Made by a program: the position numbers and the translations under genes. From assembly GCA_964496095.1 (NCBI GenBank), contig CAZBWU010000003.1:1901-65900 (forward strand): a stretch of 64,000 nt of DNA. Reading direction: 5' to 3'. This stretch comes from an uncultured Gammaproteobacteria bacterium. Its GTDB lineage: Bacteria > Patescibacteriota > Patescibacteriia > Magasanikbacterales > GWA2-37-8. Shown here one piece after another: positions 18,572-51,412 of the stretch (the first letter of the stretch is position 1; each line of letters opens with the position of its first letter). Under the pieces are notes generated by a model. That model saw only the letters and a program-made list of their open reading frames with translations, searched no databases and was not told the origin of the DNA.

Positions 18572-18670
18572 TTGTCATCCCGAGCGAGGCCGTAGCCGAC
18601 GAGGGATCTATTCCGATTATTAAAATAAAGTATAGATTCCTCATCCCACAAGAGGGATTCGGAATGACAA
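18572..18670. mobile_element. MITE-like palindromic element, copy 1 (intergenic atpC/atpD)
   Basis: tgtcatcccgagcgagg...gacgagggatc ... gattcctcatccc...gggattcggaatgacaa. Both half-units recur in reverse complement at 34083 and 41785. Confidence 0.7.
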
Positions 18671-18676
18671 CAAACT

Positions 18677-20053
18677 TTACTTTACCTCATCAATTCCACC
18701 TTTCATATAGAAAGATTGCTCGGATTTTTCATCATGCTTACCATCTAGAATTTCTCTAAAACCGCGGATAGTATCGGCTAATTTTACATATTTACCTTCA
18801 GTACCGGTAAATGTTTCAGCCACAAAGAATGGTTGGGATAAAAATTTTTGCAATTTACGAGCGCGGGAAACAGTAATTTTATCTTCGTCAGATAATTCTT
18901 CCATACCCAAGATAGCAATTGTATCTTGCAAGTCCTTATATTTCTGTAAAACTCTCTGGACATCACGGGCGGTGTTATAATGTTCTTCACCAACAACCAA
19001 AGGATCCAACATGGTAGAGTTTGAATCCAATGGATCTACCGCTGGATAAATACCAAGTTCAGAAAGTGAACGATTCAAAACCACAGTAGAATCTAAGTGA
19101 GCGAAAGTTGTGGCAGGAGCTGGGTCAGTAAGGTCGTCTGCAGGCACGTATACGGCCTGTACAGAGGTGATAGAACCTTTTTCGGTACTGGTGATGCGTT
19201 CTTGCAAGGCACCCATTTCTGTAGCGAGGGTTGGCTGATAACCTACAGCAGATGGCATACGGCCAAGAAGCGCGGATACTTCAGATCCAGCCTGAGTAAA
19301 GCGGAAAATGTTGTCGATAAACAAAAGTAAATCTTTACCTTCTTCATCGCGGAAATATTCAGCCATTGAAAGAGCAGTAAGAGCCACACGAGCACGAGCA
19401 CCTGGTGGTTCGTTCATTTGACCGAAAACCAGCGCAGTCTTTTCTAACACGCCAGATTCTTTCATTTCTCGATATAAGTCATTTCCTTCACGACTTCTTT
19501 CACCTACACCAGCAAACACGGAATAACCACTATGTTCTTGAGCGATGTTGCGAATAAGTTCTTGGATAACAACTGTCTTACCTACACCGGCTCCACCGAA
19601 TAAACCAATCTTTCCACCTTTTAAGAAAGGACAGATAAGGTCGATAACTTTAATACCAGTTTCTAGAATTTCAGATTTGGTTGATTGTTGTTTGAAACTT
19701 GGAGCCAGTCTGTGAATTGGGTATGTCTTGTCGGATTTCACTTCTCCTAAACCATCAATAACTTTCCCAGTCACATTAAACATGCGACCTAAAGTGTTTG
19801 GACCAACTGGCACAGAAATTGCTTTGCCAGTATCTATAACTTCGCCGTCTCTTTGCAAACCATCAGTTGTGTTCATAGCCACAGTACGGACAGTGTTTGA
19901 ACCAAGATGTTGCTGTACCTCAAGTGTCAAAATTTCTCCATTTGGCATTTTTGTTTCCAAAGCGTTAAAAATAGCTGGCAAGTTTTCTGGGAAATGCACA
20001 TCTACTACCACGCCGATAATTTGGGCGATTTTTCCTTTATTGGCTGTACTCAT
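18677..20053 (-). CDS. atpD: F-type ATP synthase subunit beta
   Basis: [15 protein letters not shown] Walker A, DELSEED-like region, 458 aa. Confidence 0.95.
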
Positions 20054-20089
20054 AATAGTGTTGATTAGTAAATTTGTTTATTAGTAATT

Positions 20090-49172: not shown

Positions 49173-49174
49173 TT

Positions 49175-51271
49175 TTATTGTCCATTCATCAAAACAATTT
49201 CATCTCTTCCATCAAAATCCACATCAACCGCGCCAACCTTAAGAGCGCCAGTAGTAAAGCTACCCGACAGCTTAAATTGAGATAATAATTTACCCGCAAA
49301 ATTATATACTTTTACTTGCTTGCTCGTGCCGTAATCTAGCGCTACGATAATTTCTTTATTTTTGTCTCCGCTCACATCCCCAACCGCTACACCTAACTCC
49401 CCTCTTAATATTCTAGTATCTACAAAAAATCTTTTACTAATTTTTGATAAAGTACTATCAAAAATAACTACTTCCGGACGAGAATTTCCCCCTGTTCCCA
49501 AAATAATTTGGCCATTTTTGGCTATACCCGGTGAATTACTGTCTGCCACCGCTATATTTAATCCTAATTTAAACTTCTTACCCAGTGGAAATATTTTTTC
49601 TTTTATAACTCCACCATGATAATTATAAATAACAGCCTCACCGCCTTTATTCTCTGAAACCACAATCGAATCTGCAGGCTCTCCACCTAGTCTACCGATA
49701 GCAATATTAAGTTCTCCTTTGTAACTGCCGTCAAACGGAAAACCATCAAACCAAATTTCTCCGGCCGAATTAAAAATCTGTAATTTTTGCCCTGTAGCAA
49801 TAATTTTTTCTTCTAATCCATCGCCGTCCAAATCACCATAATATATTTTGGCTCCACCCAAGATACCTTCTTCATAGATAAACAAACCATTACGAGAACG
49901 CGTGCCGTTGGTATTAAAAAAACGCACAAAATTACCGTTTTTAAACACAACGTTCTTCAGGCTTTGCACTGGTCTTAACATTACCAAACCATCTTTAGAT
50001 TGGAGGTTTACCTGACTGACAATGGCGCCATCATTAACCGCTTTATCTTGCGTGCCTTTTATTTTTTCATAGTCCCCACCAAGATCAACATCTTGAGGTT
50101 GGCCTGTAGCATTGACTAAAGCAATCCCATTTTGATATTCACGACGCCAGACATCTTCTTCAAACTGAGGTTTGTTGTTGAGTGATATTGCCGAGCCTAA
50201 TGGATTACCAAGGTCAACACTATACTCATCATACCACCAAGTTTGACCATGATTTTGATCGCCAAAATCAAACGAATAATAACCGTCTAAAAGCAGAGTG
50301 CTAGCCAAACCAAAACGGACTTTTTTATAATTATTATTTTTGCCATTATTGCCAGTATTAACATTGATAATGGTAAATCGAGGCTGAATTTGACCCGTTT
50401 GATTAGAAGCATAAATTTTCATGGCTTGTTGCCAACCAAAAAATGATGGAAAGCTCTCAAGCATAATGCCATTTAAATCGTTCCTATAAGCATCACTGGT
50501 CGCATTACCCACCAAAATATATTTATTATTTGTTAACCGTCTAGTTTCTTGATAAATTTTGCGCATTCCTTGTTGCCAATGATAATCTATCTCCGTATCA
50601 AGCAAACCGTCTTTGTTCAAATCTACTGTATCTCCTGTCAGCCATTTTACTTCCTTCCAAGCATTGTCAAAAAAAACCCCATCCCACAATCCGGTAGACA
50701 AAACTTCTTGAGCTACAAAATTGGCAAAGTATTGATTATATTTTAGACCATTAACTACAGGCGCGTTATCGGCCAAATCTAACATCCAGGTACCTGGCCA
50801 AAAAGTAAGCTTATTATTATTAATATCGGTCAAATACGAATTCTCGCTAATACCACTAACAAACTTACGTCTCATAATACTAGTGCCGGAACTGGCATCC
50901 TTGCTAATTTCTTGTGGAGCAACATAAACCAATAAAATTATATTTGGATTAAGTTGTTTTATTCTTTTAATAGCCTCGGGACTAGTAATCTGCGTTTCCA
51001 TATCTAACACTAACAAATCCCATTGAGCGAGTTCAACTACTTTAGAAGCTGGTATATCCCAACCTAAAAAATAATTAGCCCGCTTGGGTGAACCTCGCAA
51101 AGCCAAGGATAAATTCGGAAATAACAAACCTATATAACCAAAAAATACTAAAACTAAAGCAACGGCTACCAAATAAGGCCGTTTTATTTTTGTTCTTTGC
51201 ACTTGCCTCCTCCTATGTACAGGCATACTTAAATTTGACTTTATTTTATCATAAAATAGTGCTATAATCAA
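49175..51271 (-). CDS. signal-anchored surface protein: TIM-barrel glycoside-hydrolase-like (GH114/GHL-like) domain + C-terminal FG-GAP/VCBS repeats
   Basis: N-terminal TM anchor, WDLLVLDME...GVFFDN motifs, and C-terminal repeats DGDGLEEKII, GDVSGDKNKEIIV, VDVDFDGRDEIVL. Confidence 0.5.
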   Translation of the reverse strand: MIIALFYDKIKSNLSMPVHRRRQVQRTKIKRPYLVAVALVLVFFGYIGLLFPNLSLALRGSPKRANYFLGWDIPASKVVELAQWDLLVLDMETQITSPEAIKRIKQLNPNIILLVYVAPQEISKDASSGTSIMRRKFVSGISENSYLTDINNNKLTFWPGTWMLDLADNAPVVNGLKYNQYFANFVAQEVLSTGLWDGVFFDNAWKEVKWLTGDTVDLNKDGLLDTEIDYHWQQGMRKIYQETRRLTNNKYILVGNATSDAYRNDLNGIMLESFPSFFGWQQAMKIYASNQTGQIQPRFTIINVNTGNNGKNNNYKKVRFGLASTLLLDGYYSFDFGDQNHGQTWWYDEYSVDLGNPLGSAISLNNKPQFEEDVWRREYQNGIALVNATGQPQDVDLGGDYEKIKGTQDKAVNDGAIVSQVNLQSKDGLVMLRPVQSLKNVVFKNGNFVRFFNTNGTRSRNGLFIYEEGILGGAKIYYGDLDGDGLEEKIIATGQKLQIFNSAGEIWFDGFPFDGSYKGELNIAIGRLGGEPADSIVVSENKGGEAVIYNYHGGVIKEKIFPLGKKFKLGLNIAVADSNSPGIAKNGQIILGTGGNSRPEVVIFDSTLSKISKRFFVDTRILRGELGVAVGDVSGDKNKEIIVALDYGTSKQVKVYNFAGKLLSQFKLSGSFTTGALKVGAVDVDFDGRDEIVLMNGQ

Positions 51272-51286
51272 GGAAAATTACCGTAC

Positions 51287-51412
51287 TGTCATTCTGAGTG
51301 TAGCGCCCGCCCGTACCGAACGAGTACGTTCGGGCGGGAAGAATCCCTGTCCAAATTTAATAATGACAAACGAACAGAGATCCCTCGGGGCGAACCCCGC
51401 TCGGGATGACAG
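51287..51412. mobile_element. MITE-like palindromic element, copy 10
   Basis: tgtcattctgagtgtagcgcccgcccgtaccgaacgagtacgttcgggcggg...gatccctcggggcgaaccccgctcgggatgaca. Its terminal ATGACA supplies the ATG called at 51406. Confidence 0.7.

Follow-up and report, generated by a model that had tools for sequence, protein, structure and literature searches.

Short palindromic elements are scattered through the middle of a 64-kb stretch of DNA (the window, below) from a Magasanikbacterales genome of the Candidate Phyla Radiation (CPR). What are these elements, and what spreads them? An initial annotation had listed ten copies of a family resembling miniature inverted-repeat transposable elements (MITEs), and had proposed an IS200/IS605 TnpA transposase as a possible partner. 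We think it likely that the ten copies, nine inverted doublets and one singlet, belong to the hairpin class tagged by CGTC or TGTC, whose members are now called Ssn-related motifs (SRM), and that their partner is a GIY-YIG nuclease of the Ssn type. The conspicuous repeat load of a streamlined CPR genome would then be tied to a recently discovered nuclease-repeat system.

Ten sites of a covarying hairpin family

We scanned the window for the half-unit from which the elements are built, recording half-units on both strands. The sequence TGTCATYCYGARCG, allowed at most one mismatch, matched 17 times where shuffles predict 0.07 matches, and a two-gap doublet pattern (all of the left half and the beginning of the right inner arm) matched 13 times where 0.00 are expected. 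A looser scan found 19 half-units, all at the ten listed sites, and two chance matches besides; relaxing the scan revealed no convincing half-unit in the rest of the window, outside 18.5-51.4 kb. The ten listed copies are therefore real, and their coordinates were right to 1-2 nt, some having taken in a flanking T or A and one an extra TGTCAT (41785-41790). Nine sites hold inverted doublets of 74-125 nt, close to the 76-126 nt claimed for the family, and one holds a solo half-unit. They are listed here with their stem types, which are explained below the list:

18573-18669: doublet in the spacer between the atpD stop and the atpC start; left half (+) 18573-18608, CCC; right half (-) 18635-18669, TCC
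23923-24020: doublet in the atpE-atpF spacer; right half (-) 23995-24020, TCT, loop GCAGAGC; left half (+) of a degenerate CCT type, without the 3' C
30526-30599: doublet in the spacer between a DUF2238 gene and a TP_methylase gene; left CCT, right TCT
34083-34118 (-): solo half-unit of CCC type, in frame in the transketolase gene (33695-35917, minus strand)
38325-38416: doublet, TCT + CCC, in frame in the Sulfatase domain of a 794-aa open reading frame (ORF; 37975-40359, minus strand)
40743-40821: doublet, CCT + TCT, between murB and an S30AE/HPF gene
41785-41899: doublet, TCC + CCC, in the divergent spacer of murB and an ATP-grasp gene; the extra TGTCAT lies ahead of it
42967-43063: doublet, imperfect TCT + CCC, in frame in a 436-aa ATP-grasp-like ORF (42041-43351, plus strand)
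45620-45699: doublet, TCT + CCT, in frame in a 244-aa ATE_C-like ORF (45246-45980, plus strand)
51287-51411: doublet in a divergent spacer; a TCT half with a 45-nt nested hairpin and a CCC half

Each half-unit reads 5'-(T/C)GTC, AT-YCY, GA, a variable inner hairpin, GA, RGR-AT, C, (T/C)-3'. The stem triplets YCY/RGR occur in the window in all four of the variants CCC/GGG, TCC/GGA, CCT/AGG and TCT/AGA, and they match each other in 18 of the 19 half-units of the window and in 223 of 233 half-units from loci in other phyla. We made a formal covariation count over 46 distinct 26-nt half-units: 97.8% of the cells were paired, against 87.7% after shuffling (a level that 0 of 500 shuffles reached), with compensatory changes at four of the seven stem pairs. 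Controls with a slid alignment were at most 53% paired. Columns 5-25 are AU and columns 6-24 are UA in all 46 distinct sequences.

The stem comprises five Watson-Crick pairs, a tandem G·A loop (G·A/A·G) and then at least two further pairs. Its two GA steps would pair as tandem G·A mismatches only on the strand that carries TGTC. Loop size varies from 3 nt up to 45-nt nested hairpins, and the commonest inner hairpins are GCGAAGC, GCGCAGC, GCGTAGC and GCGGAGC, with ACGNAGT also found. They are of the GCGNAGC type, a DNA mini-hairpin of exceptional stability (PMC13037366). The head is TGTC in all 19 half-units of the window, and 18 have the 3' C. When 162 hairpins were anchored by the stem only, GTC stood directly 5' of it in 157 and C directly 3' in 159; the head was TGTC or CGTC in 146, and the 3' tail was C, then T or C, then any base.

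The inner arms are present, as GARGRATCYCT / AGRGATYCYTC, and so is the exact reuse of a half-unit at the 18573 and 34083 sites: the 18573(+) and 34118(-) half-units are identical over 42 nt counted from the head. The supposed 14-nt terminal inverted repeats (TIRs) are not simple TIRs, since each forms the 5' arm of a separate local hairpin. All nine doublets are heterodimers, the stem type differing between the two halves.

Short spacers hold six of the elements, four of which are within co-directional operons. The remaining four elements of the ten, which the initial annotation did not recognize as coding, are read through in frame inside long ORFs. In transketolase, the solo half-unit encodes TVIPSEAVADEGSIP in the linker ahead of the C-terminal domain. 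The doublets in the sulfatase-family, ATP-grasp-like and ATE_C-like ORFs encode VIPSEPLKATRDLSEQELSNGKILHSAQNDR, VILSEVALEADEKSIPKKQDRDPSPRKGFGMT and VILNEVKNPLSQDKRDPSVAELPQDD, respectively, and a second assembly contains an ATE_C-like protein identical to that of the window. Annotators should expect VIPSE... and VILSE... peptides inside CPR proteins to be derived from such repeats. A 236-aa ORF at 23357-24067, which overlaps the 23923-24020 doublet, is probably an over-extended atpF call. The predicted ATG of a Wzy_C (O-antigen-ligase-like) gene, at 51406, falls in the terminal ATGACA (51398-51411) of the 51287-51411 element, so that either the repeat provides the start codon or the start was mis-called.

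Might the elements act as structured RNA, stabilizing mRNAs or serving as processing sites or attenuators in operons? At least six of the ten sites are within co-directional operons or ORFs and are therefore transcribed; the long hairpins fold strongly as RNA (z-scores -3.4 to -6.8), and the stems covary. However, Rfam scans with the gathering threshold and with an E-value threshold found nothing relevant at the elements. Every doublet contains both orientations and there is no U-tract. Mismatches in the stems show no bias of G·U over C·A (four versus six), the GCGNAGC loop is a stability motif specific to DNA, and SsnA, a nuclease of the Ssn type, does not bind RNA (PMC11893778). We consider a structured-RNA role highly improbable; a side-effect of the elements at the RNA level may exist. 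A tRNA scan of the window found none.

Gain, loss and probable replacement among relatives

By its best AtpD matches, the window's genome belongs to Candidatus Magasanikbacteria (CPR/Patescibacteria). Our main comparison genome was a Candidatus Magasanikbacteria relative (ENA ERZ27249658/9, loci L123, L124 and L129) whose AtpD is 99% and whose DNA is ~91% identical to that of the window. Six of the eight comparable sites are empty in this relative (18573, 23923, 30526, 34083, 38325 and 41785). In L123 and L124, the atpD stop at the 18573 site is followed by 3 nt and then by the atpC ATG. The 23923 site is empty in L123, and the 30526 and 41785 sites are empty in L129, where the sulfatase orthologue lacks the 38325 element and has 759 aa (versus 794 aa in the window). 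The elements at 40743, filled in L129 as well, and at 42967 are common to both genomes. The reverse case was also found: a spacer that measures just 5 nt and is empty in the window contains a doublet in L129, with 90% identity to the 40743 doublet. Since sites are empty in the relative and the reverse case is filled, the elements have moved recently. This bears out the initial description of one dispersed, non-autonomous family that is mobile or recombining.

The contrast between empty and filled sites runs in both directions across the relatives L123, L129, L125 and L126. Among the further insertions of more distant relatives is a doublet located between atpG and atpD and missing from the window. 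In L125, the atpD-atpC spacer (11451-11520) holds another composite, a perfect-stem dRS3/NTS-like unit TGTCATTCCCGCCAAAGCGGGAATCC beside a half-unit of the G·A-loop type, showing that two hairpin subtypes coexist in the lineage. The atpD-atpC spacer is apparently a hot spot for insertions. In L126, L127 and L128 (95% AtpD identity; 11413-11697, minus strand), this spacer contains a 94-aa ORF and no doublet. The ORF has no Pfam match, and the one in L126 is not a GIY-YIG protein.

Shared sites can differ in content as well. The left half of the 42967 element has another stem type (TCC/GGA) and another inner hairpin in L129, suggesting that it was swapped from another copy and not changed by point mutation. 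In an alignment of transketolases, the closest homologue (P0121) lacks the insert, more distant ones (P0123, P0126 and P0130) carry the peptide, and P0142 has a full doublet at the site of the window's solo half-unit. Some transketolase homologues have an unrelated insert (SPLGRGRGGL) at this linker site.

These replacements bear on the possibility that the repeats are orphans: passive sequences whose host encodes no nuclease, kept and shuffled by recombination or gene conversion, or used as targets by other elements, as dRS3 is for phage integration. Together, a 42967 half-unit that was replaced rather than mutated and a transketolase site that holds a solo half-unit, a doublet or other inserts according to lineage indicate templated replacement. 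The window and the relatives' loci yielded no GIY-YIG gene, and ssnA is absent from 19% of SRM-rich genomes (PMC11893778). However, reciprocal gain at new sites between genomes that are ~91% identical, and a copy identical over 42 nt at two unrelated sites, point to ongoing copying, and the DNA examined covers ~64 kb out of a genome size of about 1 Mb. We regard orphan repeats as unlikely.

We also looked for target-site duplications at 89 doublets. Direct repeats of 1-8 bp abutting the ends were at or below the shuffled expectation, and the inverted repeat reaches just one base past TGTCAT; at ~90% identity, the alignments of empty and filled sites are too diverged to fix the exact insertion boundaries. 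The elements do share with classical MITEs, which are bounded by TIRs and moved by a DDE transposase, their terminal inverted sequences, small size, dispersal and insertion polymorphism. Yet target-site duplication is absent, with direct repeats at chance level, the supposed TIRs are covarying hairpins, solo half-units occur, and no DDE gene is associated with the family among the neighbouring ORFs of at least 120 loci (see below). The classical-MITE picture is not supported, and we consider movement by a DDE transposase extremely improbable.

A GIY-YIG gene framed by inverted half-units

The family is limited neither to one segment nor to one genome, since more than 120 genome loci in many phyla carry the motif. 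In a scan that used one genome per species, the doublet pattern occurred in at least 120 loci from more than 15 bacterial phyla, with chance matches estimated, by our own calculation, at a handful. The matches listed include Planctomycetota, Bacteroidota (among them the isolates Mucilaginibacter and Spirosoma), Chloroflexota, Acidobacteriota, Nitrospirota, all proteobacterial classes, Firmicutes, Gemmatimonadota, Ignavibacteria, Omnitrophota, Armatimonadota and other CPR lineages. The pattern was also present on 103 contigs of the IMG/VR viral collection (loci L210-L312), which would be possible vectors if they are true phages. Some of these (for example L252, L275 and L255) have 10-15 matches in less than 15 kb, or tandem arrays, and 11 of the 103 have a GIY-YIG gene. 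In a Bacteroidales metagenome-assembled genome (L049, 1614-2997), an NtrC-type response regulator contains in-frame repeat peptides (HPSPPERSEES and AVILSEAKNL), so that coding copies read in frame occur outside the CPR as well.

We wondered which gene accompanies the repeats. An all-against-all BLAST of the ORFs in the at least 120 loci listed recovered only common housekeeping families as recurrent neighbours. Two of the loci (L098 and L038) have an ORF of 82-96 aa lying exactly between two inverted half-units of the window type, and both ORFs encode GIY-YIG proteins (PF01541, E=4e-18 and 6e-15). With these two proteins as queries, we collected 80 metagenome homologues and searched for a half-unit within 150 nt of each gene. 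The neighbours of these metagenome loci are not close relatives of the window's organism. Upstream of the gene, a correctly oriented half-unit was found in 48 of 75 cases (64%); downstream of it, the count was 44 of 77 (57%), and 33 of 72 genes had one on either side. Wrongly oriented ones numbered only 9 and 11. Most of the flanking hairpins have the stem triplet TGC, and 17 have YCY; the TGC type has an extra A on its 3' side. The flanked proteins form an uncharacterised subgroup with the signature GFTKKY...REKQIKGW.R, and the motif after REKQIK varies with the stem: the form 'xWxR' accompanied YCY hairpins in 14 of 14 cases, and 'xGSR' accompanied TGC hairpins in 43 of 44.

These loci bear directly on the idea that the elements are repetitive extragenic palindromes (REPs) or REPINs moved by a Y1 HUH transposase, either a REP-associated tyrosine transposase (RAYT) or one of the IS200/IS605 type, as the initial annotation had ventured. 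The build of the elements is REPIN-like, with hairpin singlets, inverted doublets, no target-site duplication and hairpins potentially read as single-stranded DNA. However, the tag is TGTC or CGTC and not GT[AG]G, and a published survey found no transposase associated with REPs of the CGTC type (PMC3733652). We found no recurrent or adjoining Y1 gene in the at least 120 loci or among the unassigned ORFs of the window, in which a Pfam scan detected neither nuclease nor transposase. The sole gene found framed by half-units of the window type encodes a small GIY-YIG nuclease. The proposed TnpA partner was thus not borne out, and we judge transposition by any such Y1 enzyme very unlikely.

SsnA, a 94-aa GIY-YIG nuclease, binds and cuts NTS (which contains dRS3) and SRM hairpins only as single-stranded DNA (Chenal et al. 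2025, PMC11893778). Recognition involves the GTC head, the sequence of the stem and the C that follows the stem, and the cut falls a few nucleotides 5' of the head; cutting depends most on the three bases 5' of the palindrome and binding most on the C just 3' of it (PMC11893778). These positions are the same ones that are conserved in half-units of the window type. Typically, ssnA genes have SRMs at their flanks, which resembles the layout of an insertion sequence (PMC11893778).

Our preferred explanation is a partnership with an Ssn-type enzyme. In single-stranded DNA, a half-unit would form a stem interrupted by a tandem G·A internal loop, with a GCGNAGC-type mini-hairpin or a longer nested one as its cap. 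Its most likely partner is a small Ssn-type nuclease with a single GIY-YIG domain. Because a nuclease gene lies exactly between inverted half-units elsewhere, the doublets of the window look like the cassette without its gene; they would be its non-autonomous copies. An Ssn-type enzyme would then recognize the variant, the organism would encode one, and the enzyme or a process that it triggers would copy the repeats.

Several results weigh against this explanation. Although a lone half-unit folds into the expected shape, its computed nearest-neighbour DNA energy is weak (-1.9 to -6 kcal/mol), because the energy model gives no credit to the tandem G·A. The whole doublet favours one long hairpin (z-scores -3 to -7); however, no doublet has the same stem type in both halves, and therefore the local hairpins are the conserved unit. 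The published SRM pattern, HGTCWYN(0-2)YYVSBRHN(0-5)WNVSBRGN(0-2)RNCYNB, has zero matches in the window: canonical NTS fits it, but neither the window's variant nor the TGC type does. A six-frame search with a GIY-YIG hidden Markov model at E<=10 found no match in the window or in ~80 kb of Magasanikbacteria loci, and no CPR protein is among the best 120 matches to the GIY-YIG profile. The association between protein motif and stem type (Fisher p=1.5e-12) is calculated without phylogenetic correction. The closest solved structures to the flanked proteins are those of distant UPF0213 proteins, and for Ssn itself it is DNA cutting that has been shown, not transposition of the repeats (PMC11893778).

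A bolder proposal, which we advance only tentatively, is that the GIY-YIG gene and its two inverted hairpins form an autonomous element of a new mechanistic class, in which the nuclease, acting on single-stranded DNA, would itself mobilise the element without target-site duplication. The doublets of the window would be its still-active MITE-like derivatives, able to land in frame in essential genes, and the stem triplet (YCY or TGC) together with the protein motif (GW.R or GGSR) would constitute a simple recognition code.

Apart from the hairpin family, the window contains four cassettes of ~60-65% GC (53150-57530, minus strand) in a genome of 37% GC. The product of each is a small secreted protein (MFKFSKFLCASI or MCKFSKLTFASII), and two of these products contain DUF4215, a cysteine-rich repeat of myxococcal type. 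A repeated low-GC leader of ~250 nt precedes each cassette (55150-55400, 56480-56720, 57540-57740), and a repeated segment follows it (55400-55620 matching 56740-56960). Rfam had no matches in the cassettes. The array looks foreign by composition and is tandemly duplicated. A distinct G/C-rich palindromic segment lies at 53005-53075 (CTCCTTATTAAGGAGGGGGGGAGG...CCTCCCCTTCTTAAAGGGAGG) and may, with the SPLGRGRGGL insert of transketolases, represent a second repeat family.

Comparison with known repeat systems

A literature search with the exact sequences returned only chance primer matches, and one joining CPR and palindromic-element terms found nothing. We compared the family with described systems by their features. 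Like REPIN/RAYT systems, it consists of two inverted hairpin repeats that form one mobile non-autonomous unit, with singlet remnants and no target-site duplication; the difference is that REPINs have a GTAG-type tag and a Y1 HUH transposase, whereas here we find TGTC and a GIY-YIG gene. With the Rickettsia palindromic elements (RPEs), compared by description, it shares in-frame insertion into housekeeping genes of a small-genome bacterium and homologues without the insert. RPE-1 is longer and probably unrelated in sequence, and only RPE-4 and RPE-6 are reported as being of the CGTC type.

The family also resembles the superfamily of CGTC-tagged REPs, whose members include Neisseria dRS3 and Rickettsia conorii RPE-4 and RPE-6 (Di Nocera et al. 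2013, PMC3733652). In that superfamily, the unpaired tag is often TGTC, the stem opens with A-T and then T-A, and the repeat ends in a 3-nt tail; most members are dimers in inverted (HH) orientation, frequently heterodimers, whose structured spacers are complementary at their ends, and some are intragenic (PMC3733652). The window family agrees in its TGTC/CGTC tag, the A-T/T-A start of the stem, a short tail, inverted heterodimers, in-frame intragenic copies and the lack of a RAYT. The published elements, however, have a perfect stem of 8-9 bp and a loop of 4-5 nt, whereas the stem here is interrupted and the loop spans 3 to more than 40 nt. The tail is CTC (CYN) here and CCA there, and the five phyla reported earlier compare with more than 15 in this study, the CPR included.

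The family also compares closely with the SRM/Ssn system. SRMs, including the Neisseria NTS CGTCATTCCCGCGMAVGCGGGAATCYRG, are likewise oriented multicopy hairpins with a (C/T)GTC head, a stem that begins with AT and a C after the stem. Both systems spread over many phyla, and both have a gene for a GIY-YIG protein of ~90 aa with inverted copies on its two sides, seen for the present family in other genomes and not in the window. The differences are the tandem G·A internal loop, the expandable inner hairpin and the CPR host. What is new here is thus a variant that lies outside the published SRM pattern and in a new host group. With our data, two questions become directly testable, namely by what means REPs of the CGTC type and RPE-like elements spread and how hairpins are read by their Ssn nucleases; the data also reveal that the published search pattern overlooks a very large cross-phylum branch of the system.

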